Under the pieces are notes generated by a model. The model worked only from the letters and a program-made list of their open reading frames with translations, searched no databases and was not told where the DNA came from. Shown piece by piece: positions 6,236-20,173 of a stretch of DNA of 64,000 nt (the stretch's first letter is position 1; every line of letters begins with the position of its first letter). Position numbers and translations under genes: made by a program. Where the stretch lies: assembly GCA_031278655.1 (NCBI GenBank), contig JAITJZ010000064.1, positions 8,607 to 72,606 on the forward strand, given 5' to 3'. This DNA is from Bifidobacteriaceae bacterium (GTDB lineage: Bacteria > Actinomycetota > Actinomycetes > Actinomycetales > WQXJ01).

Positions 6236-7003
6236 CTCGTGGCCGGCCGCCGCCAGCGCGTCCTTCACCTGACGGATGGTGAGCGCGCCGAAGTGGAAGA
6301 CGGAAGCCGCCAAGACGGCATCGGCCCCGGTGGCGGCGGCGGCCACAAAATCCTCCACCCGCCCGGCCCCTCCCGAGGCGATCAGCGGCAAGCTGACCGC
6401 GCCACGCACGGCCGCCAGCATCTCCAGGTCGAAGCCGCCGGTGGTGCCGTCCGCGTCCATCGAGTTCAGAAGGATCTCACCGGCGCCCAACTCCTGCCCG
6501 GCCCTGGCCCACTCAACCGCGTCCAAGGCCACGCCGCGCCGCCCGCCGTGCGTGGTCACCTGGTAGCCGGAGGGCGTGACGACGCCGTCCTGGCAACGCC
6601 GCGCGTCCACCGACAGCACCAGCACCTGGCTGCCGAAGCGGCCCGCGATCCGTTCGATCAGGCCCGGGTCGGCGATGGCCGCCGTGTTGACGCCGACTTT
6701 GTCGGCCCCGGCCCGCAGCAACCGGTCCACGTCCTCGACACGGCGGACGCCGCCACCCACCGTCAGCGGCACAAAGACCTGGTCGGCGCTGCGCCGGACC
6801 ACGTCGAGCATCGTCTCGCGCCCCGCCGAGGACGCCGTCACATCCAAGAACGTGACCTCGTCGGCGCCCATCTCGTCATAGCGGGCGGCCAGGGCCACCG
6901 GGTCGCCGGCGTCCCTCAGGTCGCGGAAGTTGACGCCCTTGACCACCCGCCCGGCGTCCACGTCGAGGCACGGGATCACCCGCAGCGCCACGCCCACGCT
7001 CAC
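6227..7003 (-). CDS. hisF: Imidazole glycerol phosphate synthase cyclase subunit
   Basis: [39 protein letters not shown]; GTG overlaps pafA stop. Confidence 0.97.
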
Positions 7004-8445
7004 TCCCTCCCGGCCTCAGCCATGATCTGATCGAACTCGTTTGTCGGGGCGGATTCGGCGGCCGCCGCCGCCCCCTCCAGCCCCGCTATCAGCGCCTCCG
7101 CCGCCGGGTCGGCGCTGTCGAGCGGGTCAAGCAGCGCCACCGCCGGGGCCTGCCCCAACTTCAAGCGCACCCAATCGACAGTGTATTCCCGCCCGGCCGC
7201 GCGGGCCGCCGCCACGAAACGTCCGCGCAGGTGGGCGCGGGTGGTTGGCGGGGGCTGGGTGACGGCCGCCGCCGCCTGCCGATGTCCGATGACGTCGGCC
7301 AGGTGGCCGCCCGCCTCCAGCTTTTGGCGCAGACCGCCTTGGGCGTCGAGCTGGTGGTAAGCCAGTTCCAGGCGCAGGACGCGCGGGTCGGCCAGCGCGG
7401 CGCCGGTGCGCTGACGGTAGCGCTCGATCAGGCGCCACTTCGCCAGCCAGTCGAGTTCGGTCTCAAGGCCGTCGAAGTCGAGCCTGTCCCAGGCCGTCAA
7501 GGTCCGGCGCCAAAGGTCCAGCGCAGCCGTTTCTGAGGGGCTGGCGGCGGCCGCCTCGGCGGCCGCGAAGAAGCGCCATTGGACCGTCACCGGGTCGATT
7601 GTGCGGCCGTCGGCCAATGCGATCGGGTGCGCGCCGCGCCCCTGGGCGGCGGGCCAGCTCTGGGCCACTTGGCGCAGCGCCTGAACCGGGTGGGCCAGTT
7701 CCAGGTCCGGGAGTTGGCCGCCGCCGGCGGCGGCCCGCAGCAACAGCACCATCGAGGCGACCTTGAGGCGGGCGGCCGCGCCCGCCATGTTCGAGTCCCC
7801 GACAATGACATGCAGGCGGCGGTGGCGCCGCCCATCCCCGTGCGGCTCGTCACGGGTGTTGATGATCGGCCGCGAGCGGGTGGTGGCCGAACTCAGCGCC
7901 TCGGCCGTGTGCAAGGCGCGCTGCGACAGCAGGTAGCGGACGCCCTTCGGGTCGACCTGGACTTTGCCGGCGCCCACCAGCAACTGCCGGGTGACCAGGA
8001 ACGGGATCAGTTTGGCCGCGACCTCGGCCGACCCGGCCCGGTCCACCTGGTAATTCTCGTGGCAGCCGAAGGCGTGGCCGGCCGAATCGGTGTTGTTCTT
8101 GAGCAGCGCCACCGGGGCGCCGGCGCGGCGCCCCGCCGCCTCCGCCAGAACCGCCATCAGCCGGTCCCCGGCCCGCTCCGCCGCCAACAGTTCCTCGATC
8201 GTGGAACACTCCGGGGTGGCGTATTCGGGATGGGAACCCACGTCCAGGTAGAGCCGCGCCCCCGCCGGGGTGAAGACATTGGTGCTCCGGCCCCAGGCCA
8301 CCACCGGCCGGAACAACTCGCGCGCCGCCGCCTCGGCCCTGGCCAGGTCGGCTCCGCCAGCGGCGCTGGCCGAACCGGCTGGCCCGGCCGCGCCCGGCGG
8401 CGCGGCCACGCCGTACTCGGTTTCGAGTCCAAAGACCGCGCTCAC
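7000..8445 (-). CDS. pafA: Pup--protein ligase
   Basis: [58 protein letters not shown]; start placed at GTG 8445. Confidence 0.93.
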
Positions 8446-8455
8446 CGGGCGCTGC

Positions 8456-9154
8456 TCACGGGAGCGACCCCAGGCGGGCGAAGGCCCGCCCGGAACTGGC
8501 GCGGACCAGCAGCCCAACCTCATAACCGTCATCGCCGCCGGCGGCGGCGGCGCCGCCGGCCCGGCCCTCGCCGTTGCCTGAGAACGCGCCCTCGGCCAGA
8601 GCCAGGCGTGCCAAGCTCCCGGCCTGGGCCAGGCTCAACCCCGGGCGCCAACCCTCGGCCAGAGCCTGACGGCCCGCCGGCGTGGCGCCGCCCAGCACCG
8701 CCCAAGGCAACTCGTCGCTGACCGAACCGTCGAAGCGGACGTGGAAGACGGCATCGGACACCTGGCTGGCGCCAACCTCCGCCACCGCCAACTCGACCTC
8801 CAACGGCTTCGGGTCGCCGGTGAAGGCGGCGGCGATGGTCTGGGCGTAAGCCCCGGCCAAGCCGCGGGCGGTGACATCGGTGCGGTCATAGGAGTAACCG
8901 CGCAGGTCGGCGTAACGGATGCCGGCCACGCGCAGAGCCTCGAACTCCGACCACTTGCCGACCGCGGCGAAGGCCATCCGGTCATAGATCTCCGACAGCT
9001 TCCTCAACGCCCGCGAAGTGTTGGCGGCGGCCAGGAGCACGCCATCGGCGGTCGACAAGACCACGGCTGGGCGGCCCCGGGCGACGCCGCGCTTGGCGAA
9101 GTCCGCCCGGTCCTTGATGATCTGCTCGGGCGGGACGTACAACGGCATGGTCAT
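8456..9154 (-). CDS. prcA: 20S proteasome alpha subunit
   Basis: PEQIIKDRADFAKRG, RKLSEIYDR, YADLRGYSYDRTDV, KPLEVELAVAEVG. Confidence 0.93.
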   Translation of the reverse strand: MTMPLYVPPEQIIKDRADFAKRGVARGRPAVVLSTADGVLLAAANTSRALRKLSEIYDRMAFAAVGKWSEFEALRVAGIRYADLRGYSYDRTDVTARGLAGAYAQTIAAAFTGDPKPLEVELAVAEVGASQVSDAVFHVRFDGSVSDELPWAVLGGATPAGRQALAEGWRPGLSLAQAGSLARLALAEGAFSGNGEGRAGGAAAAGGDDGYEVGLLVRASSGRAFARLGSLP

Positions 9155-10017
9155 GGGCGGGCCCGCCTCGCCTCGCCGCGCCTCTCCAGCGCCCGCGCCA
9201 ACTCATCGTCCGGGACGCGGCTGTAACCCCGGGCGTCGACCCGGGCCACCACCGGGTAAATGTCGCGGGCCTGGTCCACCCCGGCGGTGGCGGCGTCGTC
9301 ATCGGCGGCGTCGATGAGCGCGGTCAACGCCGTGCGGATGGCAGTCCTGGCGCTGGCGGCCGGGTTGTGGAGTTTCTTCAGCGAGCCCTTGGCGAAGACC
9401 GCGCCCGAGCCGATGGCGGCGTAGTCGCGCTCCTCGTAGCTGCCGCCGGTGACGTCGAAGGCGAAGATGCGCGCCGCGGCGCCGTCCCAACCGCCCAGCA
9501 ACGGCACCACCACCAGTCCCTTCATGGCCAGTTCCAACTGGCCGGCGATGATCGCCGCCAACCGGTTGGCCTTGCCGGAGAGCGACAGGGCGATCCCCTC
9601 GATCTTCTCGTAATGCTCCAGCTCCAGTTGGAACAGCCGCACCAATTGGATCGACAGCCCGGCCACCCCGGCCAGGCCGATGGCCGTCCAGGCGTCCGCC
9701 GGGTAGACCTTCTCGATGTCGCGGCTGGCGATCTGATGGCCGACGGTCGCACGGCGGTCGCCGGCCATGACGAGCCCGTCCTTGTAGGTCAACGCCACGA
9801 TGGTGGTGGCCGTGGGCGGCGCGCCGGGCGCCCCGGCCCCGGTTGGCCCCACCGCTCCGGTTGCTCCGGCTGCCCCGGCTGCTCCTATTACTCCAGTTGC
9901 TCCGGTTGCTCCGGCGAAAGGCCACCGCGCCCCCGGCGCGGCCCGGCCCAGGAACTCCACGAACGAGTTGCCCGGACCGAAGTAAGTGGCGGGCAGGCCG
10001 TCCGGCGCGCGGCTCAT
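9151..10017 (-). CDS. prcB: 20S proteasome beta subunit with propeptide
   Basis: TTIVA (Thr1 at 9805-9807), AGDRRAT, DIEKV, AIGSG. Confidence 0.95.
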   Translation of the reverse strand: MSRAPDGLPATYFGPGNSFVEFLGRAAPGARWPFAGATGATGVIGAAGAAGATGAVGPTGAGAPGAPPTATTIVALTYKDGLVMAGDRRATVGHQIASRDIEKVYPADAWTAIGLAGVAGLSIQLVRLFQLELEHYEKIEGIALSLSGKANRLAAIIAGQLELAMKGLVVVPLLGGWDGAAARIFAFDVTGGSYEERDYAAIGSGAVFAKGSLKKLHNPAASARTAIRTALTALIDAADDDAATAGVDQARDIYPVVARVDARGYSRVPDDELARALERRGEARRARP

Positions 10018-10199
10018 TGGCCGCCCTTTTGGACGAACCCCTTGACGAACGCCTCCGCCGAATCCTCCAGGACCTCGTCTATCTCGTCCAGCAAGTCATC
10101 GATCAACTGGGTGCGCGATTGCGGCGCGGCGGGCGGCGCCGGGGCTGGCTCATCGTCGCGGTCGCGCGGTGGCAGATCGGTGCGGCGGACTTGCTCCAT
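10014..10199 (-). CDS. pup: Prokaryotic ubiquitin-like protein Pup (GGQ type, needs Dop deamidation)
   Basis: IDDLLDEIDEVLE..AEAFVKGFVQKGGQ; alternative GTG start at 10205. Confidence 0.95.
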   Translation of the reverse strand: MEQVRRTDLPPRDRDDEPAPAPPAAPQSRTQLIDDLLDEIDEVLEDSAEAFVKGFVQKGGQ

Positions 10200-10298: not shown

Positions 10299-10314
10299 CG
10301 TGGCGCGAATCACA
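10299..10314 (+). promoter_or_regulatory. Candidate CRP/GlxR- or Rex-type operator downstream of a TAAGGT -10 (10277-10282) for the PFOR operon
   Basis: CGTGG-N6-TCACA versus consensus TGTGA-N6-TCACA; right half perfect, left half 3/5. Confidence 0.35.
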
Positions 10315-10368
10315 GCGCCGGACTTTGGTCCCCCCAAAAAGCCTCAAAACAAAAGATGGAAGGCCATC

Positions 10369-13300
10369 GTGACGACCTCACAGGCATGTTTTCCCGGTAT
10401 CCCCGAAGTGATCAATGGCAATGGCGCCGTCGCGCACGTTATGAAACACGTTTGCGGCGGCATGATCGGCTATCCGATCACACCTTCCACCGAGATCTCA
10501 GAGTTGTTTGAGGCGGCCCGCGCCGAGGGCCAGCTCAACGTCTGGGGGGCGCATCCGTTCTTCGTCGAGGCCGAGGGCGAGCACTCCGGCCAATCGGGCG
10601 CCCTGGGGGCGGCCCTGACCGGCGGCAACTACATCTCGAACGCCTCCAGCTCGCAGGGGGTCCTCTACGGCCTGGAGTCTCACTACGTCACCGTCGGCAA
10701 GAAGGTCGGCGGTTTTGTGCTGCATCTGGCGGCGCGCGTGGTCTCGAAGCACTCGCTCAACGTCATGGCCGGGCACGATGACGTCTACGCCCTGTTGCCG
10801 TCCGGCTACACAGTGCTGTTCGGGTCCTCGCCGCAGGAGGCGGCCGACCTGGCCGCCATCGCCTACCGGTTGGCCGGGCTGTCGCTGATCCCGGTCGCCA
10901 ACACCATGGACGGGTTCGCCACCTCGCATGTCATGACGGAGGCGCGCCTGCCGGAACCGGCCCTGCTGCGCGCCTATTTGCCGGACCCGGCCGGGCGGAT
11001 TGACTGCCCGACTGTCGCCCAGGCGATCTTGTTCGGGGCCAAGGGCCGGATGTTCCAACTGGGGCAGTACTTGGACCGGCACGCGGCTGATTTCGAGGCC
11101 CCTGACCTGAGCGCGCTGCGCGCGCATCTGGCCTCCATGGCCGAGGCGGTCGAAGCCGACGACGCCGCCGAACTGGCCGCAGAGACAATGGTCTGGGTGC
11201 CGGAGGACCTGCGCGGGCAATGGCGGCGCCAGTGGCTCGGAGCGGACCGGCGCGGCACGCGCCAAGCGGTTCCCGCCCTGGTGGACCCGCACAATCCGGG
11301 TTTGACCGGCCCGGTCCAGAACCAACCGGACTTCCAGGCCGGCTCGGCCGACCACCGCGCCCACTTCGCCGCCGACGTGCCGGCGCTGGCCCGCCAGGCC
11401 ATGATCGAGTACGCCGCGCTGACCGGGCGCGAGTACAGCCCGGTCATGGCTTACGGCTGCGAGGACGCCGATTTCGTGATGGTCGGCCTGGGCTCGATCA
11501 CCGATGACGTCCGCGCCGTCATCCCCCACCTGCGCGCCCAGGGGATCAAGGCCGGGGTGGCCTCGGTCAAGCTGCTCCAGCCGTTCCCCGAGGCGGAGTT
11601 CGTCCAGGCCGTCGGCTCGGCCAAGGCCGTGATGGTCTTGGAGCGCTCCGACGACACGGCCCTGACCCGGTTGACGACGCAGGCGTTGTTCCGGGCCGCC
11701 GCCGGGCAGTTGCTGCCCGATGCCGCGCGCCTGGCCGCCGCTCCCAAGGTGACGACCGCGATTTTCGGTTTGGGAGGCCACGACGTCCAGCCCCGCCACT
11801 TGGTCGCCGCCTTCAAGGCGATGGCGGACGGCTCCGCCGCGGACGTGGTCTACCTGGGCTCGCAGTTCTTCGATGAGCAGCCGCCGCCGGCCCTGGCCGG
11901 CGTCCACGACCAGTTGCGCGCCGCCTACCCCGAGACCGTCAGGATGGGGTTGGCGACTGAGGACAACCCGTCGCTGCTGCCGCCGGGCGCGCTCAGAATC
12001 CGTTTCCATTCGGTTGGCGGCTACGGCACCGTCGCCACCGGCAAACTGCTGACGGACATCTTGTCCGGTGTGCTGTCGATGCACTCGAAATCGGCCCCCA
12101 AGTACGGCTCCGAGAAATCCGGCGCGGCCACCAACTACTACATCACGCTGTCGCCGGAGCCGGTCTTGTTGACGAACGCGGAACTCGAGGACGTGGACGT
12201 CGTCATCTCACCCGACCACCAGGTCTTTGTCCACACCAATCCGTTGAAGGGCCTGGCCGAGGGCGGCACTTTCATCATGCAGTCTGACCAGGCGCCGCTC
12301 GCGGTCTGGCGTTCGCTGCCGGCGCACGCGCGCCGCGCCATCCGCCAGCGGCAGATCAAGTTCCTGGTGGTCGACGCCTTCGCCGTGGCCAAGAAGCACG
12401 CGCCCAGCCCGGAGTTGGAGACCCGGATGATGGGCATCGCCTTCATCGGGGCGATGATCGGCCACGTCGAGGCGGTGGCCGGCGGCGCCGGCCAGGACGC
12501 GGTCGAGGCCAAGGTCCGCGAGCAGATCGAATACAAATTCGGCCGCAAGGGCCAGGCGGTCGTGGATGGCAACATGGCGGTCATCAAGGACGGCTTGGCC
12601 TCGACCCGACTGGTCGACCACTCCCAGCCGGAGTTCGCCGAGGACCAGGCGCCGGCGGCCCGCGCCCGGGCCAGGTCGGTGGCGCTGTCCGCCGCCATGT
12701 GCCCGGCGGCCGCCGAGTCCCGCCCGGCCGCCCTCTTCGACCCGGCTTATTACGAGGACCTGGTGGCGGCCCCGTTCCGGCGGGGCACCATAGCCGAGGC
12801 CCCCGTCTTGCCGGGGGCTGGCCTGTTCATGCCGATCGCCTCCGGGGCCAACAAGGACAAGGGCGTCTTCCGGCGCCAAACGCCGGTCTTCAACCCGGAT
12901 ATTTGCACGGGCTGCCTCGAGTGCGCGCTGGCCTGCCCGGATACGGCCATCCCCAATCAGGTCCATGAGATCCGCGATCTTTTGGCGGCGGCCGTGGCCG
13001 CCGCCAACCTCACTCCCAGCCGGGCCGAGGCCCTGGCCCCGCACGTGTTGGACTGGGCGGACGCCATCCGCCAGGCCTACCGCCTGGACCCGGAGCTGCG
13101 CGACCTTGGCGACGCCGCCCGCCGCGCCGCCGCCGGCTTGGCCGCGCCGGCGGTCGACCGGGTGACGGAGGCGGTGGTGGCGGCCTTGACGCAGTTCCCG
13201 GCCGCCCGGACGCGGCCCTTCTTCGATTCGGTCGAAGCTTCCGAATCCGGGCGCGGCGCGCTTTTCAGCGCCACCGTCGATCCTTGGAAGTGCACCGGCT

Positions 13301-15483
13301 GCCTTCAATGCGTCGACGTCTGCGGGCCCTCGGCCCTGGTGGCGGTCGATCAGACGGCCGCCAGCGCCGACTTGCTTGAGACCCGCTTCGAGCGGCTGGG
13401 CCAACTGCCTGATTCCCCGAAGCGGTTCCTTGATGGCGCCACGGACATCGACGGCGACGTCAAACGCCTGCTCCTGGACCATGACGCCTATTACGCCATG
13501 ACCGGCGGCCACGGCGCCTGCCGCGGCTGCGGCGAGGTCACGGCCTTGCGCCTGGCCACCACCGCCGCCCACGCCGTCGGCGAGGGCCGCCGGGCTGAGC
13601 ACGTCAAGGAATTGGAGGCGCTGATCGCGGACCTGACGGCCAAGGCCGACTCGATCCTGGCGGGCGCCGCCGCCAACGCCGCCCGGGGCCGCGCTGGGAC
13701 CGGCGCGACGGCATCGGACAAAGACACCGACAAAGACGCCGACAAAGACACCGGCAACAACACCGACAACGACGCGGCCGCGCGCCTGGCCCACCTGAAC
13801 GAACTGATCGCCGTCCTGGAGGCGCGGCTCTACCTCTACGAGGGCGGCCCCACCGGGCGCGGGCCGGCCACCACGGTCATCGCCAACTCGACCGGCTGTT
13901 CCTCCGTCTACGCCTCGACCATGCCGTTCACGCCTTACACCGACCCCTGGGTGAACTCCCTCTTCCAGGACGCGCAGCCGCTGGCGGTCGGCATCTACGA
14001 GGGCTTGGTGTCCCAGTTGGTCCCCGAGGTCCGCGCGACGCGGGCGGCGCGGCTCGAACTCGCGGACGCCTTCGACCCGGAGCGCGACGGCCGGCGCCTG
14101 GCGACGATCTCCTGGCGCGACTTCACTCCCGCCGAATTGCGGCTGCTGCCCGCCATGCTGACCGTCTCCGGCGACGGCGCCGCCTTCGACATCGGCTTCG
14201 GGGCCATGTCGCGGGTCCTGGCCGGGGGCACGCCGATCAAGGCGATCGTGCTCAACACCGGCGCCTACTCCAACACCGGCGGCCAAGCCTCGACCGCCTC
14301 ATACACCGGCCAGGACGCTGACCTGGCCCGTTACGGCAAAGCCCACGCCGGCAAACTCGAGTCGCGCAAGGAATTGGGGCTGCTGGCCTCCTTCCACCCG
14401 CGCGTCTTCGCCTGCTCGGTCTCGACCGCGCTGCACTCGCACTTCCTGGCCACCACCCTGGCGATGCTCGATTACCAGGACGGCTCGGCCGTGATGGAGG
14501 TCTACACCCCCTGCAGCACCGAGAACGGAATCGCCGAGGACCTCTCCAACGCCCGCTCGCGCCTGGCCGTCGAATCGCGCATGGCGCCGCTGTTTGTGCA
14601 CGACCCGCGCCGCGGCCCGAGCCTGCCGGAGCGCTTCTCGCTCGACGGCAACCCGGAGCCGAACGCGCTTTGGACCACCCGCACTTTGCAGTACACCGAT
14701 GACGCCGGCCAGGTGGCGTTGTTGCAGACGCCGCTGACGCCGGCCGACTTCGCCTTCGGTGAGGTCCGGTTCGCCAAGCAGTTCCGCCGTTTGGCGCCGG
14801 AGCAGGCCGCCGATGCCGTGCCCATCGCCGAGTATGTCGAGTTGCCTCACGATCAACGGGCCGGGCTGACACCTTTCATTTGGGCGGCCGACCGGAACGG
14901 GCGCCTGGTCCAGGTCGCCTGCCTGCCCGGGGTGGTGGGCCTGGTCGAGGACCGGCGGCACTATTGGCGGACGCTGCAATTCTTGGCCGGCCAGCGCGAC
15001 GCGGAACTCTCGGCCGCGCATCGGGCCGAGGTCGCGGACCTGACCGCACGCTATGAGCAGGCCGTCGCCGCCCGCGAGGATTCGCTCGATCAGATCGCCG
15101 CCGCCATGGCCGAGTTGGCCAGTTCGGCTGAGGCGGCGCCGCAGGCGCTCGGGTTGGGCGGGTTCGGCTTTGGCGGCGCTGTTGGCGGCGCTGTCGCTGG
15201 CGGCGGGGCTGCCGCGGCGGCGGGCGGGGCTGCCGGCGGCGGGGCGGCGGCCGGGCGGCCGATCTGGCTCGACCCGGCCGACGAGCCGACCTGCAACGAC
15301 TGCGGCACCTGCTACCAGGAACTGCCGCAACTGTTCGAGAAGACGACCATCGTGGTCGACGGCGAGGCCCGCGTCGTGGCCCGGATGATCGACGGCGCCC
15401 TCGACGGGATCGACGTCACCCCCGAACTGACCAAGCGGATGGGCAGGGTCAAGGCCAACTGCGACGCGGAGATCATCAAGTGA
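10369..15483 (+). CDS. Enlarged pyruvate/2-oxoacid:ferredoxin oxidoreductase (PFOR-like, ~1704 aa) with C-terminal fused ferredoxin
   Basis: GYPITPST; gamma domain FHSVGGYG...YGSEKSG; CTGCLECALACP and CTGCLQCVDVC; CRGCGE, NSTGCSS, GDGAAFDIG, NTGAYSNTGGQ; C-terminal CNDCGTC...C. GTG start after GGAAGG RBS. Confidence 0.9.
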   Translation: MTTSQACFPGIPEVINGNGAVAHVMKHVCGGMIGYPITPSTEISELFEAARAEGQLNVWGAHPFFVEAEGEHSGQSGALGAALTGGNYISNASSSQGVLYGLESHYVTVGKKVGGFVLHLAARVVSKHSLNVMAGHDDVYALLPSGYTVLFGSSPQEAADLAAIAYRLAGLSLIPVANTMDGFATSHVMTEARLPEPALLRAYLPDPAGRIDCPTVAQAILFGAKGRMFQLGQYLDRHAADFEAPDLSALRAHLASMAEAVEADDAAELAAETMVWVPEDLRGQWRRQWLGADRRGTRQAVPALVDPHNPGLTGPVQNQPDFQAGSADHRAHFAADVPALARQAMIEYAALTGREYSPVMAYGCEDADFVMVGLGSITDDVRAVIPHLRAQGIKAGVASVKLLQPFPEAEFVQAVGSAKAVMVLERSDDTALTRLTTQALFRAAAGQLLPDAARLAAAPKVTTAIFGLGGHDVQPRHLVAAFKAMADGSAADVVYLGSQFFDEQPPPALAGVHDQLRAAYPETVRMGLATEDNPSLLPPGALRIRFHSVGGYGTVATGKLLTDILSGVLSMHSKSAPKYGSEKSGAATNYYITLSPEPVLLTNAELEDVDVVISPDHQVFVHTNPLKGLAEGGTFIMQSDQAPLAVWRSLPAHARRAIRQRQIKFLVVDAFAVAKKHAPSPELETRMMGIAFIGAMIGHVEAVAGGAGQDAVEAKVREQIEYKFGRKGQAVVDGNMAVIKDGLASTRLVDHSQPEFAEDQAPAARARARSVALSAAMCPAAAESRPAALFDPAYYEDLVAAPFRRGTIAEAPVLPGAGLFMPIASGANKDKGVFRRQTPVFNPDICTGCLECALACPDTAIPNQVHEIRDLLAAAVAAANLTPSRAEALAPHVLDWADAIRQAYRLDPELRDLGDAARRAAAGLAAPAVDRVTEAVVAALTQFPAARTRPFFDSVEASESGRGALFSATVDPWKCTGCLQCVDVCGPSALVAVDQTAASADLLETRFERLGQLPDSPKRFLDGATDIDGDVKRLLLDHDAYYAMTGGHGACRGCGEVTALRLATTAAHAVGEGRRAEHVKELEALIADLTAKADSILAGAAANAARGRAGTGATASDKDTDKDADKDTGNNTDNDAAARLAHLNELIAVLEARLYLYEGGPTGRGPATTVIANSTGCSSVYASTMPFTPYTDPWVNSLFQDAQPLAVGIYEGLVSQLVPEVRATRAARLELADAFDPERDGRRLATISWRDFTPAELRLLPAMLTVSGDGAAFDIGFGAMSRVLAGGTPIKAIVLNTGAYSNTGGQASTASYTGQDADLARYGKAHAGKLESRKELGLLASFHPRVFACSVSTALHSHFLATTLAMLDYQDGSAVMEVYTPCSTENGIAEDLSNARSRLAVESRMAPLFVHDPRRGPSLPERFSLDGNPEPNALWTTRTLQYTDDAGQVALLQTPLTPADFAFGEVRFAKQFRRLAPEQAADAVPIAEYVELPHDQRAGLTPFIWAADRNGRLVQVACLPGVVGLVEDRRHYWRTLQFLAGQRDAELSAAHRAEVADLTARYEQAVAAREDSLDQIAAAMAELASSAEAAPQALGLGGFGFGGAVGGAVAGGGAAAAAGGAAGGGAAAGRPIWLDPADEPTCNDCGTCYQELPQLFEKTTIVVDGEARVVARMIDGALDGIDVTPELTKRMGRVKANCDAEIIK

Positions 15484-18314
15484 GCCGCCCGGTGGCCGAA
15501 TGGGCCAGCGCCCGCCAAGGGCTCGACGCCTCGCTGAACAAACTCCGCCAACTCGAGTCCAGCCCCGAGGTCGCCTCCTTCAACGGCCAATTGAAGGTCC
15601 TGGAGCGGCGTTTGGCCGCCAACCCGCGCGTCTTCCGCGACCTGTTCATAGCCGACGGCGTGGCGGCGGTGGCGGCGGCCTTCAGGGGCGAGGAACTGAC
15701 CGGCGAGTTCACCAAGCGGCTGTGGGCCATGCTCCAGCGCGAGGACGACACCTCGACCCTGATAATGCGCTTCATCTGGAACCTGCCGGTGGGCAAGAAG
15801 CGCATGTTCATGCGGGCGCTCGACACCCATCTGCGCGACGACTACCCCATGTTCGCCGGGCTCAGCGACGGCTGGCCGGCCGGGAACGGGATTGAGCCCT
15901 ACATCCGCTCGCCCGAGGTCCGCTCCCAGGATTTCGAACTGGTCAACAAGGGCTACCTGGGTTACATGGACCTGGGCCACACCCGCCGCGACGTCGATCT
16001 GTTCGTCTGGTTGGAGGCGATCCGCGACAAGCAATGCGCCGAGGCGCCCTGCGAACTCGGTCAATTCCTGGCCGAGCACCGGGCGCCCAAAGGCGGCTGC
16101 CCGGTGCGCATCCACATCCCCGAAATGTTCGCGCTGATCGGCTGCGGCCGCTTCGCCGACGCCCTGGCGATGCTCGAGAAAGCCAACCCGCTGCCGAATG
16201 TGACCGGCCGGGTCTGCCCCCAAGAACTCCAATGCCAAGGCGTCTGCCTGCACAAACACCCTATGTCAATCGGCCAGGTGGAATGGTTCCTGCCAGAGCG
16301 GGACAAACTGGTCGACCCGGACGCCGCCCGCCGGCGCTTCGCCGGCCGCGCCGACCCGTGGTCCAGCGCCGTCCTGCCGCCGGTGGCGGTGGTGGGCTCG
16401 GGGCCGTCCGGCCTCATCAGCGCCTACCTGCTGGCGGTTGAGGGCTTCCCGGTGACGGTCTTCGAGGCTTTCCACGAACTCGGCGGCGTGCTGCGCTACG
16501 GCATCCCCGAGTTCCGCCTTCCGAACCAGTTGATCGATGACGTGGTGGCCAAGATTCGGCTGCTCGGCGGGCGCTTTGTGACCAACTTCGTGGTCGGCAA
16601 GACCGCTGCCCTGGCCGACCTGCGGGCGGCCGGTTTCTGGAAGATCTTTGTCGGCACCGGGGCCGGCCTGCCCAAGTTCACCGGCGTGCCGGGCGAGCAC
16701 CTGCTCGGGGTCATGTCCGCCAACGAATTCCTCACCCGGGTCAACCTGATGCAGGCCCACCGCCAGGGGGCGGAGACGCCGCTGCCGGCCGTGCGCGACC
16801 GCCACGTCATCGTCATCGGCGGCGGCAACACGGCCATGGACGCCGCCCGGACCGCCAAACGGCTGGGCGGCGACGTCACCATTGTTTATCGGCGCACCCA
16901 GGCGGAGATGCCGGCCCGGGTCGAGGAACTGGAGCACGCCCTGGAGGAAGGCGTCAAACTGGCGGTGCTGCGCTCCCCCAGTCAGTTCACAGGCGACCCG
17001 GAGACCGGCTTCGTCCGCTCCGCCAGCGTCGATGTCATGGAGCTGGGCGAGCCGGACGAGTCTGGGCGGCGCCGCCCGGTGCGGACCGGGCGCAGCGAGA
17101 CAATGCCGGTCGACTTGGCCATCATGGCCTTGGGCAACGCCGCCAACCCGATCATCAAGGACTCCGAGCCGCGCCTGGAGGTCTCCCGCTGGGGCACCAT
17201 CAACCTGGGCGGGGCGGACACCCAGCAAACCACCCTCGAGGGTGTGTTCACCGGCGGCGACGCCGCCCGCGGCGGCTCGACCGCCATCATGGCGGCCGGC
17301 GACGGCCAAGCGGCGGCCAGGGAAATCCTGCGGCTGACCGAGGCAGCCGGCGCCGGCGGCGCCGACCCGGCTGATGTGGCGGCGGCGGTGGGCTCGGCCC
17401 TGGCCTACACCGAGGCGGCGGCCGCCGCCCCCGTGATCCTGGCCCGGCGGGAACTGACACCCGGGATCGTGGAGTTCGAGGTCCGCGCCCCGGCGGTGGC
17501 GGCCTCGGCCCAGGCTGGCCAATTCGTGCGCGTCCTGCCGTGGACCGGCGGCGAACTGATCCCCTTGACGCTGGCCGATTGGGACACAGCCGCCGGGACG
17601 GTCACGCTGGTGGTGCAAGACATGGGCGCGTCCTCGCACAGGATCAACCAACTCGCCGTCGGGGACGCCTTCGCCGGGATCGCCGGCCCCCTCGGGCGGC
17701 CGTCTGACCTGCATCATTACGAGGCCGACGAAACAGTCGTGTTCACCGCCGGCGGCCTCGGCCTGCCGCCCGTCTACCCGATCATGCGCCAGCATCTGCG
17801 CCTCGGCAACCACGTCACCCTGATCTCGGGCTTCCGCTCCCGGGAACTCATGTTCTGGGACCAGGACCACGAGCGGGTCGGCCGCCTGCAGACCGAGTTC
17901 GGACAGCAGTTGGACGTCATCTACGCCGCCAACGACGGCTCCTTCGGGATCAAAGGCTTCGTCACCACGCCGCTGGCGGAAATGCTCGAAGCCGAGCGGG
18001 CTGGAACCGCCGCCCGCCGGATCGCGGAAGTCGTCGCCATCGGACCCCCCCTGATGATGCGCGCGGTCTCCGACCTGACCAAGCCCTACGGCACCCCCAC
18101 CGTCGCGTCGCTGAACTCGATCATGGTCGACGCCACCGGCATGTGCGGCGCCTGCATGGTCCCGGTCTTGGCCGACGGCAAACTGGTGCGCAAACACGCC
18201 TGCATCGACGGGCCGGAGATCGACGCGCACACAATCGACTGGGACAAGTTCCTGCCCCGCTTCAACCTGTTCAAAGCCCAAGAAGCCGAAGCCCGCCGCC
18301 GCGTCGGCATCTGA
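15480..18314 (+). CDS. Single-chain NfnB(GltD/SudA-like)-NfnA(FNR/SudB-like) Fe-S flavoprotein with extra N-terminal domain
   Basis: GCP..IHIP, GRVCPQELQCQGVC, VGSGPSG, GGGNTAMD, TGGD; then GQFV, PLTLAD, GPLG, GGLG, IGP..MM, MVDATGMCGAC...ACIDGPE; GTGA overlap with the PFOR stop. Confidence 0.85.
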   Translation: MSRPVAEWASARQGLDASLNKLRQLESSPEVASFNGQLKVLERRLAANPRVFRDLFIADGVAAVAAAFRGEELTGEFTKRLWAMLQREDDTSTLIMRFIWNLPVGKKRMFMRALDTHLRDDYPMFAGLSDGWPAGNGIEPYIRSPEVRSQDFELVNKGYLGYMDLGHTRRDVDLFVWLEAIRDKQCAEAPCELGQFLAEHRAPKGGCPVRIHIPEMFALIGCGRFADALAMLEKANPLPNVTGRVCPQELQCQGVCLHKHPMSIGQVEWFLPERDKLVDPDAARRRFAGRADPWSSAVLPPVAVVGSGPSGLISAYLLAVEGFPVTVFEAFHELGGVLRYGIPEFRLPNQLIDDVVAKIRLLGGRFVTNFVVGKTAALADLRAAGFWKIFVGTGAGLPKFTGVPGEHLLGVMSANEFLTRVNLMQAHRQGAETPLPAVRDRHVIVIGGGNTAMDAARTAKRLGGDVTIVYRRTQAEMPARVEELEHALEEGVKLAVLRSPSQFTGDPETGFVRSASVDVMELGEPDESGRRRPVRTGRSETMPVDLAIMALGNAANPIIKDSEPRLEVSRWGTINLGGADTQQTTLEGVFTGGDAARGGSTAIMAAGDGQAAAREILRLTEAAGAGGADPADVAAAVGSALAYTEAAAAAPVILARRELTPGIVEFEVRAPAVAASAQAGQFVRVLPWTGGELIPLTLADWDTAAGTVTLVVQDMGASSHRINQLAVGDAFAGIAGPLGRPSDLHHYEADETVVFTAGGLGLPPVYPIMRQHLRLGNHVTLISGFRSRELMFWDQDHERVGRLQTEFGQQLDVIYAANDGSFGIKGFVTTPLAEMLEAERAGTAARRIAEVVAIGPPLMMRAVSDLTKPYGTPTVASLNSIMVDATGMCGACMVPVLADGKLVRKHACIDGPEIDAHTIDWDKFLPRFNLFKAQEAEARRRVGI

Positions 18315-18358
18315 CGCCTCGCCCCGATGCTCGACGCGCCTTTGGACTTGCGACGCCA

Positions 18359-19957
18359 TTACCTGATGATCAGGTGCCCAGCGCGCTCCGTGTACCCCGA
18401 AAGGTTGTTCATCCGCAACTGGTCCAACCGACCGGCGAACCACATCAGAAGCAAACTGGCCGCGCCCGCCAGACACACGCAGATAGTGCCCACAAGTGAA
18501 GCCGCGACCACGCCCACGTTAGTCACGTGCAGTGCCAACACCAATGTGGACCACCCGCAACAGATCATCGACCAACACACGATCCACCTCGGCCAACGCA
18601 GCAGTTCGGTGCGCGCCGGGTGCTCGCCTTCCCGAGCCGTGAACCCTAGAAAGACCGTTAGCACGGCGGTCATAACTGGAACCACACTGGTGATTCCGTA
18701 GAATTTGTCAACCCTGCTCGTGCCCTTGGCCTGCTCGTCGATCAGGTCCAGGAATTTCTGCGCCTTCCAATCTCCTCCCAGCGCCTTCCCCACAAAATCC
18801 ACGGCGGCAGCGAGATTGTCATTGCCATGGAGGCGAACCCACTCAGCCGCGTCCGCCAACACGCTGTCTGTGCCAGCCTCGCGGAAGAACACCCACGCGA
18901 CGCAGAACCAAGCGATAGCGGCGGCCACCTGGGCCAAAATTCCCGGCACCAAAAAACGCGCCCCATCGGGCCTGATCCTCAAGCTGGCGTAAACCCCGCT
19001 GTTCGCCCCGATTCTCCGCGAAAAGTCCCTGGTGTACACCGTCGCTATAGCCGACGAGGACCTCGTTCGCACAGAGCCGACTGGCGACTCCCGCCGATTT
19101 CCGGCGACAGTCACGACGGGAACCGCTTGCGCGCTGATACGGGTTCCTGCCGGGGCGATGAATGAAACATACTCACGGGCTGCTCTGCCGACATTCGGCA
19201 GCGTCAGGCTTAGCAGCCCGCCCCGATAACCGAGCTTCTCCGTCCAACTGAGCGTCCGGCGCCACCCGCCTGAGCTGTTCCAATCGGTGTAACTGTAGGA
19301 GATTTGACGCACACCGGTCGGCCTCGAACCTATTGGCACGAGCGGCATGTAGTTGAACGTGAACTGCGTCAATAACGCTTCGAAGTCCTTGTGGTCCTTG
19401 AGCAATGTTTCCAATGGCGACCGGCCAAGGCGATCCTCGGTCTCCCACACGAAGAGGGGATCCCCCCGGCCTTGGTTCTCCAGCAATCGCTGGGTTTGCT
19501 CCCTGTCGGGAAGAATCCTGATGCTCTTCCATACCGAATCTCTGGCGGAACCCTGAAGCGGGGGCAAACGCTTGTCCTCAAGCACGCAGTCAAGCATGCC
19601 CAGGGCGATCTTAGAGTGACCTTCACTCTGCGCCATGACCAAAGGTCGGCCTGCGTCGTCGCGCACCTCCAAGTCAGTGAGGTTCTTCGTCAGGAACGCC
19701 AAGGGAAGCCACAGGGTCTGTCGCCGAGACAGCCCTGCTCTCCGCGCGCGCTCGGCGACATCGTCCATGTCGATGTCGAGGGTCACAGTTCTTTTCCAGC
19801 GGCTGACATCCAGCAACTCGATTGACTCCCGATGCCGCCAAATCCACGACGGGTCATCCACCAGGTTCCACATAAAGCGAGCGATCAACTGGCGTTGATA
19901 GGGCGGAGTCGGAGGCGGCTTCCCGAAAAGCTTGCCGCCTGAACGGGTTTCCGTCAT
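18359..19957 (-). CDS. Hypothetical protein: large soluble N-terminal domain plus about 4 C-terminal TM helices; lower GC
   Basis: 532-aa ORF with atypical codon usage; hydrophobic segments near the C-terminus; ATG directly follows the upstream TAA. Confidence 0.75.
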   Translation of the reverse strand: MTETRSGGKLFGKPPPTPPYQRQLIARFMWNLVDDPSWIWRHRESIELLDVSRWKRTVTLDIDMDDVAERARRAGLSRRQTLWLPLAFLTKNLTDLEVRDDAGRPLVMAQSEGHSKIALGMLDCVLEDKRLPPLQGSARDSVWKSIRILPDREQTQRLLENQGRGDPLFVWETEDRLGRSPLETLLKDHKDFEALLTQFTFNYMPLVPIGSRPTGVRQISYSYTDWNSSGGWRRTLSWTEKLGYRGGLLSLTLPNVGRAAREYVSFIAPAGTRISAQAVPVVTVAGNRRESPVGSVRTRSSSAIATVYTRDFSRRIGANSGVYASLRIRPDGARFLVPGILAQVAAAIAWFCVAWVFFREAGTDSVLADAAEWVRLHGNDNLAAAVDFVGKALGGDWKAQKFLDLIDEQAKGTSRVDKFYGITSVVPVMTAVLTVFLGFTAREGEHPARTELLRWPRWIVCWSMICCGWSTLVLALHVTNVGVVAASLVGTICVCLAGAASLLLMWFAGRLDQLRMNNLSGYTERAGHLIIR

Positions 19958-20173
19958 TTACAACTCAACAGGCGCCACAACGCTGCTCGCACCATCGCCG
20001 ACGGCGCCCAATTCCACGCTCCGCGACCCTGTGCCGCCAGCCTTCATCTGAATATCACCGATGAGGTAAGTGCGATCCAAGCCTCTGCGCTCGAGCTGTT
20101 TGCCGATGCTTCGGTCGCCGGCCTCGGGACTGACAAGCCGCGCGCGCAGCCACGGCATCATGTCAAGCGTCAC
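19958..20173 (-). CDS. Small hypothetical protein (71 aa)
   Basis: GGAGGAG RBS 6 nt before GTG; its TAA stop abuts the ATG of the 532-aa gene (TAAATG). Confidence 0.55.
   Translation of the reverse strand: MTLDMMPWLRARLVSPEAGDRSIGKQLERRGLDRTYLIGDIQMKAGGTGSRSVELGAVGDGASSVVAPVEL

Follow-up and report, generated by a model that had tools for sequence, protein, structure and literature searches.

A two-gene cassette lies at positions 10369-18314 (+ strand) of a 64,000-nt stretch of contig JAITJZ010000064.1 from a Bifidobacteriaceae bacterium (the whole stretch analysed, with a G+C content of ~70%, is called the window below). Its first gene (gene A, 10369..15483, +) encodes a long single-chain 2-oxoacid:acceptor oxidoreductase of the pyruvate:ferredoxin oxidoreductase (PFOR) type that carries a predicted ferredoxin on a C-terminal tether, and its second (gene B, 15480..18314, +) encodes a single-chain flavoprotein of 944 aa that resembles the NADH-dependent ferredoxin:NADP+ oxidoreductase (Nfn) and belongs to the group called 'Pattern C' or PRK12779. 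In the textbook view, PFOR and Nfn exchange electrons by way of a freely diffusing ferredoxin pool. Together, A and B probably link the oxidation of a 2-oxoacid to the formation of NAD(P)H without soluble ferredoxin.

Results

The two open reading frames (ORFs) are long and lie head to tail on the + strand, ORF A being open over 10300-15483 and ORF B over 15480-18314. As read from the sequence, the TGA stop of gene A (15481-15483) overlaps the GTG start of gene B (15480-15482), and the GTGA junction at 15480-15483 that an earlier sequence-only annotation of this DNA (hereafter the original prediction) had described is therefore borne out. A GGAG sits 8 nt 5' of the GTG of gene B. The public call for this gene begins at 15492, but we kept the start at 15480, because an overlapping stop/start (ATGA or GTGA) is conserved in five related loci. 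For gene A, the GTG at 10369, which is preceded by a GGAAGG ribosome-binding site at 5-nt spacing, gives a protein of 1704 aa, while alternative starts at 10300 and 10411 (the public database call) would give 1727 aa and 1691 aa, respectively. Compared with the solved PFORs of Moorella thermoacetica (1171 aa) and Desulfovibrio africanus (1231 aa), A is indeed oversized, as had been claimed, by ~500 residues. This extra length comes from an insert in the domain I/II region, an insert of ~100 aa in domain V, an insert in domain VI and a C-terminal extension of ~290 aa.

Pfam profiles on A (POR_N, PFOR_II, POR, two Fer4 motifs and a fragment of TPP_enzyme_C) follow each other in the order of a single-chain PFOR. 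Domain I (10459..10962, +; POR_N, 1e-33), the pyrimidine-binding half of the thiamine pyrophosphate (TPP) site, aligns to the M. thermoacetica enzyme (6cin_A), and its YPITPST, its conserved TPP-activating Glu and its HLAAR fall on substrate and TPP residues of solved PFORs. Domain II (PFOR_II, 11467-11799, +) and the CoA-binding, gamma-like domain III (POR, 12016-12597, +), each identified by Pfam and by alignment to 6cin_A, occupy 11467..12597, a region that corresponds to 6cin_A residues 205-714. Domain V (12883..13329, +) contains two C-x2-C-x2-C-x3-C [4Fe-4S] motifs, CTGCLECALACP and CTGCLQCVDVCG, which are split by the family-specific insert of ~100 aa and give Fer4 matches at residues 862-885 and 985-1008. 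In the TPP/Mg-binding domain VI (13478..14619, +), alignments to 6cin_A and to the D. africanus PFOR (1b0p_A) assign four cysteines, in GACRGCGE, STGCSS and YTPCST, to the proximal [4Fe-4S] cluster and place the TPP motif in GDGAAFDIG...NTGAYSNTGGQ. A D/T/K-rich low-complexity insert (DKDTDKDADKDTGNNTDND) lies within the TPP domain at ~13633-13782. Of 118 close homologues, 65-79% have a gap in its place, so that it is peculiar to this lineage; it forms a genome-specific part of the domain VI insert.

The hallmarks of the 2-oxoacid:ferredoxin oxidoreductase (OFOR) superfamily are all found in A, namely POR_N and TPP_enzyme_C-type domains, a POR domain that binds CoA, and all four proximal-cluster cysteines. 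With the homodimeric PFORs (D. africanus 1B0P, M. thermoacetica 6CIN; NifJ/YdbK, TIGR02176) A further shares the domain order I-II-III-V-VI, the TPP/Mg motif, both domain V motifs and aligned active-site residues, whereas it departs from them in its low similarity, in the inserts in domains I/II, V and VI and in the extension that ends in the tethered ferredoxin. The best solved structure for A, that of M. thermoacetica PFOR (6cin), scores 261 bits over the matched parts, and the NifJ PFOR equivalog model TIGR02176 matches A in four stretches with 374 bits, against a cut-off of 911. A is therefore PFOR-like in architecture yet outside the curated TIGR02176 equivalog. More than 100 homologues of 1640-1724 aa share 62-82% identity with it, and from its motifs A is predicted to be a divergent but catalytically complete single-chain PFOR-type enzyme. 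The low equivalog score, the generic NCBI name and several large inserts relative to solved PFORs would also suit an enzyme that oxidises another 2-oxoacid (2-oxoglutarate, 2-oxobutyrate, a branched-chain or an aromatic one), but we give this little weight, since the best matches of A are PFOR/PorA models and PFOR structures. A also appears to keep a small hydrophobic pocket and residues aligned with the Thr, Arg and Asn of the putative pyruvate site, by analogy with the D. africanus enzyme.

Downstream of domain VI, A continues into a family-specific C-terminal extension (14668..15129, +) that is conserved across phyla. In an AlphaFold2 (AF2) model of the last 330 residues, which was built from a 10-sequence alignment (mean predicted local distance difference test score, pLDDT, 69), the extension comprises an alpha/beta domain (14668-14985; pLDDT 80-94) and then a 44-residue helix (14998-15129). 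Comparison of this model with the PDB by Foldseek gave no significant match (best E = 0.5), leaving the extension domain unclassified. A disordered, Gly/Ala-rich tether of ~40 residues follows (15136..15255, +; pLDDT below 50), a region that in the relatives of A is low-complexity and differs in length and sequence. The tether leads to the predicted C-terminal single-cluster ferredoxin domain (15256..15480, +), in which a C-x2-C-x2-C...C pattern is written as C-N-D-C-G-T-C-Y-Q ... N-C-D-A-E. This domain aligns with Pfam Fer4_13 and Fer4_15 over the full profile length at E = 4e-4 to 8e-4, with scores below the cut-offs (21.5 bits versus 24.5, and 20.5 versus 22.4), and its own profile matches the 72-aa 'putative ferredoxin' of PDB 7m1o/7m1n (E = 8.5e-5) with the cysteines aligned. 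None of the four cysteines (C13, C16, C19 and C69) varies among ten loci that represent two phyla, and 118 of 120 homologues carry the motif. The AF2 pLDDT of the domain is only 53-83 and the structure search gave no match, so that the domain is assigned as a ferredoxin from its cysteine motif and from sequence-profile evidence. The helix, Gly/Ala linker and extra ferredoxin of the original prediction are thus recovered in the AF2 model, the profile match and the invariant cysteines, which support the tail as a real, conserved and flexibly tethered single-cluster ferredoxin. Such a tethered ferredoxin on a PFOR-type enzyme seems not to have been described.

Gene B scores 1589 bits on NCBIfam NF009415/PRK12779 (cut-off 1519) over residues 3-942 of 944, and its homologues are 70-85% identical. 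An N-terminal extension is followed by an NfnB-like module and, at the C-terminus, by an NfnA-like module. In their review, Liang, Huang and Wang (2019) describe as 'Pattern C' a type exemplified by Mobiluncus curtisii ADI67453, which is ~200 aa longer, has its NfnA part at the C-terminus, occurs in Actinobacteria, Alpha- and Gammaproteobacteria and is singled out as uncharacterised (PMC6405883). Gene B, which lies above the NF009415 cut-off over its full length, fits the description given there. Its N-terminal domain (15480..15884, +; ~135 aa) is specific to Pattern C, appears helical in the AF2 model and gave no match in a Pfam scan or a PDB profile search. Seventeen internal residue positions of this domain are invariant across ten loci from two phyla, and we propose it as a candidate docking site for the tethered ferredoxin or for the PFOR.

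The NfnB/GltD-like module of B (15912..17339, +) consists of an Fe-S region with six invariant cysteines, an FAD site (VAVVGSGPSG) and an NADPH site (VIVIGGGNTAMDAART ... YRRT), and B residues 173-612 align with the large subunit of Pyrococcus furiosus NfnI (5jca_L, 348 bits) and with Thermotoga maritima NfnB (4ylf_B, 323 bits). The NfnA/PyrK-like module (17436..18311, +) combines domains for FAD and NAD binding with a [2Fe-2S] site of the form D-x4-C-x2-C-x15-C, and Pfam detects DHODB_Fe-S_bind and NAD_binding_1 in it. Residues 649-929 align end to end with the NfnI small subunit (5jca_S) at 226-229 bits, compared to 158 bits for 4ylf_A and 123 bits for the small subunit of the non-bifurcating Xfn (5vj7_B). 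The Asp and three Cys of the [2Fe-2S] site, in MVD(A/G)TGMCGAC...AC(I/V)DGPE, align with those of 5jca_S, as befits an Nfn small subunit. The AF2 model of B (pLDDT 77, predicted TM-score, pTM, 0.71) superposes on both NfnI chains (Foldseek TM 0.82 and 0.87). The NfnI alignments and this superposition confirm the predicted fusion of an NfnB/GltD with an NfnA module, to which the N-terminal domain comes as an addition.

B thus has both subunit folds and the FAD, NADPH, NAD and [2Fe-2S] motifs of a classical Nfn such as P. furiosus NfnI, whereas it differs in being a single chain in B-A order, in its extra, unmatched N-terminal domain, in its linkage to a PFOR gene and in its Fe-S region, which has one conserved Cys fewer and a 12-residue insert relative to the NfnI large subunit (NfnI-L). 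The Fe-S cysteines of B follow the pattern C-x4-C-x15-CP ... CP-x4-C-x3-C, with C-x4-C-x15-CP in the place of the C-x2-C-x6-C-x3-CP of NfnI-L, and a seventh Cys of B (C222) is not conserved. The missing Cys ligand and the insert would be compatible with B being a plain, non-bifurcating ferredoxin:NAD(P)+ oxidoreductase, in which case the module would be a pyruvate:NAD(P)+ oxidoreductase, an analogue of pyruvate dehydrogenase or of the pyruvate:NADP+ oxidoreductase (PNO) of Euglena. We consider this unlikely: a second nucleotide site is needless in a plain reductase, and the NfnA-like module of B has lost neither the domains that bind FAD and NAD(P) nor the Asp and three Cys of its [2Fe-2S] site, its small-subunit part being much nearer to that of the bifurcating NfnI (229 bits) than to that of Xfn (123 bits). 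A quinol-linked model was put forward by McCubbin et al. for the genes that flank a propionibacterial PFOR, where it would solve a problem of redox balance (PMC7650540); in it, the NfnA-like part oxidises quinol, and ferredoxin and quinol together reduce NAD(P)+. For B we give this model hardly any chance, because the NfnA-like module aligns with the soluble NfnI small subunit from end to end, NAD-binding domain included, and we saw no hydrophobic or membrane segment in the sequence or the model of B.

Gene B is rare: of 401 genomes that were sampled evenly from the phylum, only the source genome has it in full length. In a survey of 301 genomes of the same order, in which B and the 327-aa family-specific tail of A served as queries, B was found in 26, which comprise every one of the 11 genomes sampled from the genus, 6 of the 8 others from the family, and genomes from three further families. 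The A tail is present in 25 of these 26 genomes, and in 24 the 3' end of A abuts or overlaps the 5' end of B on the same strand, the two exceptions lying at contig ends in fragmented assemblies; this is the outcome of the co-occurrence and synteny survey that the original prediction had proposed. The other 275 genomes yielded no B and, for the A tail, a single weak match (32% identity) to a KorAB-adaptor protein of genome G590. When species-representative genomes were scanned, 11 Pattern C loci came up, of which ten have upstream sequence. A tblastn search showed that in 9 of these ten a full-length A, tail included, immediately precedes B; the nine include three metagenome-assembled genomes (MAGs) of Gammaproteobacteria and one of Alphaproteobacteria. 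The corresponding tblastn search found no A in the vicinity of 69 Nfn loci that belong to Pattern B or otherwise lie outside Pattern C, among them Pattern B loci of Bacteroidota.

Across ten loci, the pairwise identities of A correlate with those of B (r = 0.94; 45 pairs, which are not independent of each other), indicating that the genes travel together, also across phyla. The full-length B family collapses to essentially one cluster at 50% identity, which fits a tight, laterally spread family. In two phyla, A and B are passed on together as one cassette, and their functional coupling is well supported by co-occurrence, adjacency, translational coupling and co-evolution. Of the coupled module claimed in the original prediction, the functional unit therefore stands, on the strength of co-occurrence, gene overlap and correlated divergence, while its mechanism is one that we infer (see Discussion).

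Some of the loci depart from the overlapping arrangement. In Gammaproteobacteria, A and B lie ~10-440 nt apart rather than overlapping. Two MAGs from this class have disrupted genes: in L004 (2490-7446) the long PFOR is split into two overlapping ORFs, and in L009 (7815-9968) the Nfn is truncated at 718 aa; both look like frameshift errors in long-read MAG assemblies and not like pseudogenes. In a Devosiaceae MAG (L010, 4341-10595), the Pattern C gene follows genes for DAO+Fer2_BFD, Pyr_redox_2 and DUF1667 proteins, a set that resembles FngABC, and the DUF1667 ORF continues into the Nfn ORF without a stop, as a fusion or a high-GC read-through. B still adjoins a ferredoxin-dependent enzyme in L010; it is not bound to a PFOR in every lineage.

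This last locus bears on the direction in which A and B might run. PFOR and Nfn are both reversible, and B could in principle bifurcate electrons from NADPH to NAD+ and the tethered ferredoxin, with A acting as a pyruvate synthase (acetyl-CoA + CO2 -> pyruvate). Hard-wiring would aid the delivery of scarce low-potential electrons in this direction, and the characterised FngABC consumes reduced ferredoxin (PMC13689815), so that its neighbourhood in L010 fits B as a ferredoxin reducer. The named hosts are heterotrophic facultative fermenters, however, and the flanked PFOR of propionibacteria is induced on sugar and tied to acetate formation (PMC7650540), which makes the reverse direction distinctly unlikely.

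The weak matches to the A tail in the order survey led to two loci in which a related tail is found next to another type of OFOR, L081 (in G590) and L082 (in G522). L081 (2857-10022) is an operon of four overlapping genes that encode an NfnB-like protein (662 aa), KorA, KorB and a 758-aa protein without a Pfam domain, in which a segment with 33% identity to A residues 1395-1564 is followed by an Ala/Gly/Pro-rich linker and a C-terminal C-x2-C-x2-C...C ferredoxin. In L082 (8908-15124), a similar protein of 1043 aa comes after a KorA-like gene, and the adaptor segments of the two loci are 29-33% identical to A residues 1395-1564. Like A, these Kor adaptors combine a homologous extension domain, a low-complexity linker and a C-terminal four-Cys ferredoxin; unlike A, they carry this tail on a separate protein without Pfam-detectable catalytic domains, and the OFOR is of the two-subunit Kor type. 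Extension, tether and ferredoxin are thus a recurring device where an OFOR is encoded beside an Nfn-like protein, and this recurrence strengthens the reading of the tail as an electron link between OFOR and Nfn.

Two further ideas were discarded in this comparison. A as a dead scaffold, in the manner of the Kor-associated adaptors, was ruled out because all TPP and cluster motifs of A are intact. A docking domain common to B and the L081 NfnB-like protein was rejected, as the latter lacks the N-terminal domain of B and, in contrast to B, has a canonical four-Cys motif; the docking surfaces of the two systems therefore need not match.

The recurrence of the tail also bears on the possibility that A and B are co-expressed and not wired to each other, B being a general Nfn transhydrogenase that uses soluble ferredoxin and the extra domain of A an internal relay or an oxygen-protecting cap, of which domain VII of the D. 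africanus PFOR is the exemplar. Such an arrangement would agree with the occurrence of B without A in L010 and with the presence in the genome of a second OFOR and of a free 7Fe ferredoxin of the FdxA type. We nonetheless judge it improbable, given the near-perfect two-way co-occurrence of A and B, their adjacency across two phyla and their co-evolution, and given that the same tail module recurs beside another OFOR and NfnB-like set; moreover, a fixed relay would hardly call for a disordered linker of ~40 residues.

In the source assembly, which is 92.65% complete, we found an E1 alpha/beta-type 2-oxoacid dehydrogenase (378 bits on the pyruvate dehydrogenase model TIGR03181, cut-off 411), an OdhA-like protein, the alpha subunit of a second, multi-subunit OFOR, the free FdxA-type ferredoxin and, by motifs only, NuoF/NuoG/NuoI-like subunits of complex I, whereas AceE-type E1 and PflB were not detected in the assembly at this completeness. 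The second OFOR, FdxA, E1 and the NuoF/G/I-like subunits map to C162:2826-4178, C100 (a 119-aa ORF on the - strand), C13:3133-4239 and C31 of the genome. Since both an E1-type dehydrogenase and a second OFOR are encoded, we dropped the notion that A is the sole route from pyruvate to acetyl-CoA. With complex I subunits, FdxA and a second OFOR, the host is not obviously a strict anaerobe and looks like a facultative one. The named relatives belong mostly to facultative genera (e.g. Cellulomonas, Actinotalea and Demequina), and Propionibacteriaceae members of both families are among the A and B homologues. The statement in the original prediction that the pair implies anaerobic metabolism is therefore too strong. 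As soluble ferredoxin is available in this cell, independence of free ferredoxin is a proposed property of the module and not of the cell.

In the window, gene A is flanked by a divergent pup-proteasome operon (7000-10199, - strand) that consists of pup (10014-10199, -), encoding a 61-aa Pup that ends in GGQ as read from the sequence and whose stop overlaps the prcB start, prcB (9151-10017, -), prcA (8456-9154, -) and the Pup ligase gene pafA (7000-8532, -). Directly 3' of gene B, a 532-aa ORF without a Pfam match runs on the - strand (18359-19957). It falls within the segment of lowest GC in the window (18001-20000; 0.618 versus ~0.70 elsewhere) and may be a recent insertion beside the cassette. 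As the neighbours on both sides lie on the opposite strand, A and B form a two-gene unit of their own.

Discussion

The idea that a PFOR and an Nfn-like enzyme act together is not wholly new, a complex of the two having been postulated in 2020 and Pattern C having been listed as uncharacterised in 2019. McCubbin et al. found a propionibacterial PFOR to be co-transcribed and co-regulated with flanking GltD-like (NfnB-like) and DHOD-like (NfnA-like) genes, and a knockout of the PFOR cripples growth of Propionibacterium freudenreichii (PMC7650540). They postulated a bifurcating PFOR/Nfn-like complex with a quinol-oxidising NfnA-like part and urged further study (PMC7650540). Their complex is the same idea as that considered here for A and B, but it involves quinol oxidation and no tethered ferredoxin is described for it (PMC7650540). 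In the Nfn tree of Poudel et al. (2018), the Mobiluncus sequence takes a basal position, and their paper leaves PFOR unmentioned (PMC6085437), and the searched passages of the Pattern C review likewise make no mention of a long PFOR upstream (PMC6405883).

We found no paper on the tethered ferredoxin domain and no assay of A and B or of any Pattern C protein in a search that covered only a minor part of the subscription journals. The original prediction had held the pairing to be uncharacterised, and as regards biochemistry this agrees with our search, while the complex had already been postulated (PMC7650540) and Pattern C had been catalogued in the 2019 review (PMC6405883). What is distinctive in A and B is the proposed hard-wiring through a tethered ferredoxin together with the N-terminal domain of the Nfn, in a cassette that is widespread and has been hinted at in the literature.

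The PNO of Euglena and Cryptosporidium joins a PFOR directly to a flavoprotein that reduces NADP+, which makes free ferredoxin unnecessary, and in this sense PNO is a functional analogue of A and B. Unlike A and B, PNO is one polypeptide, its FMN/FAD part resembles cytochrome P450 reductase (CPR), and it has neither a tethered Fe-S ferredoxin nor a second nucleotide site. Pfam found no flavodoxin/CPR domain in A or B, and the Nfn-like reductase is a separate polypeptide, so that the pair does not classify as a PNO.

On our interpretation, A and B would form a dedicated two-protein redox module. A would oxidise a 2-oxoacid with CoA, most likely pyruvate, and the electrons would pass from TPP to the proximal cluster, on to the two domain V clusters and then to the tethered [4Fe-4S] cluster, the fourth of A. 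Replacing a soluble ferredoxin, the tethered domain would feed the Fe-S entry site or pair of B, from which electrons would reach the NfnB-like FAD as the site of NADP+ reduction, while the NfnA-like [2Fe-2S]/FAD arm of B would exchange electrons with NAD(H). Because of the established reactions of PFOR and Nfn, and if B behaves like Nfn, the favoured net reaction would be pyruvate + CoA + NADH + 2 NADP+ -> acetyl-CoA + CO2 + NAD+ + 2 NADPH. The machine would be reversible in principle. The docking of A and B, the tethered route, pyruvate as the substrate, the involvement of NADH and the independence from free ferredoxin are all elements that we infer.

A PFOR-Nfn module that is hard-wired through the tethered ferredoxin is the explanation that we favour overall, with some reserve. 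That A and B exchange electrons is very likely, and that the exchange runs through the tethered domain is reasonably probable. That the reaction is an NADH-dependent confurcation is a tentative proposal, to which we would assign somewhat less than an even chance.

Several observations weigh against the favoured explanation. A falls short of the NCBIfam PFOR equivalog cut-off (374 versus 911 bits), which leaves its substrate unsettled. Soluble ferredoxin is encoded in the genome as the free FdxA-type protein, beside a second OFOR, and it might also serve A or B. In L010, B is found without a nearby PFOR and beside FngABC-like genes, so that B can work with other partners. The Fe-S region of B has only six invariant Cys, where the aligned P. 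furiosus NfnI-L has seven Cys and a Glu for two [4Fe-4S] clusters, and the cluster content and redox tuning of B may thus differ from those of a true Nfn. Finally, close Nfn homologues such as P. furiosus NfnII/Xfn are non-bifurcating, and according to the 2019 review the function is unreadable from the sequence (PMC6405883).

A bolder version would see in A and B a stable supercomplex and a new class of bifurcating or confurcating enzyme, in which the covalently tethered low-potential carrier never enters the soluble pool and the N-terminal domain of B docks the tether. We regard this version as speculative and somewhat unlikely. If true, such a supercomplex would enable Actinobacteria and Proteobacteria that are facultative and exposed to oxygen to use PFOR chemistry without losing electrons to O2, and it would consume NADH to form 2 NADPH per pyruvate.

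The hard-wired module that we favour is directly testable, as hosts such as Cellulomonas chitinilytica and Actinotalea fermentans are cultivable. The cassette would be a natural hard-wired pathway from 2-oxoacids to NAD(P)H and, if confurcating, it would provide two defined proteins with which to study the docking of a low-potential partner on a bifurcating flavoprotein. The cassette would also bear on the possible use of a compact module to drive NADPH-dependent biosynthesis from pyruvate in engineered strains, on the possible coexistence of PFOR chemistry with exposure to oxygen, and on the balance of NADH and NADPH in fermenting Cellulomonas, Actinotalea, Demequina, propionibacteria and Actinomycetaceae.

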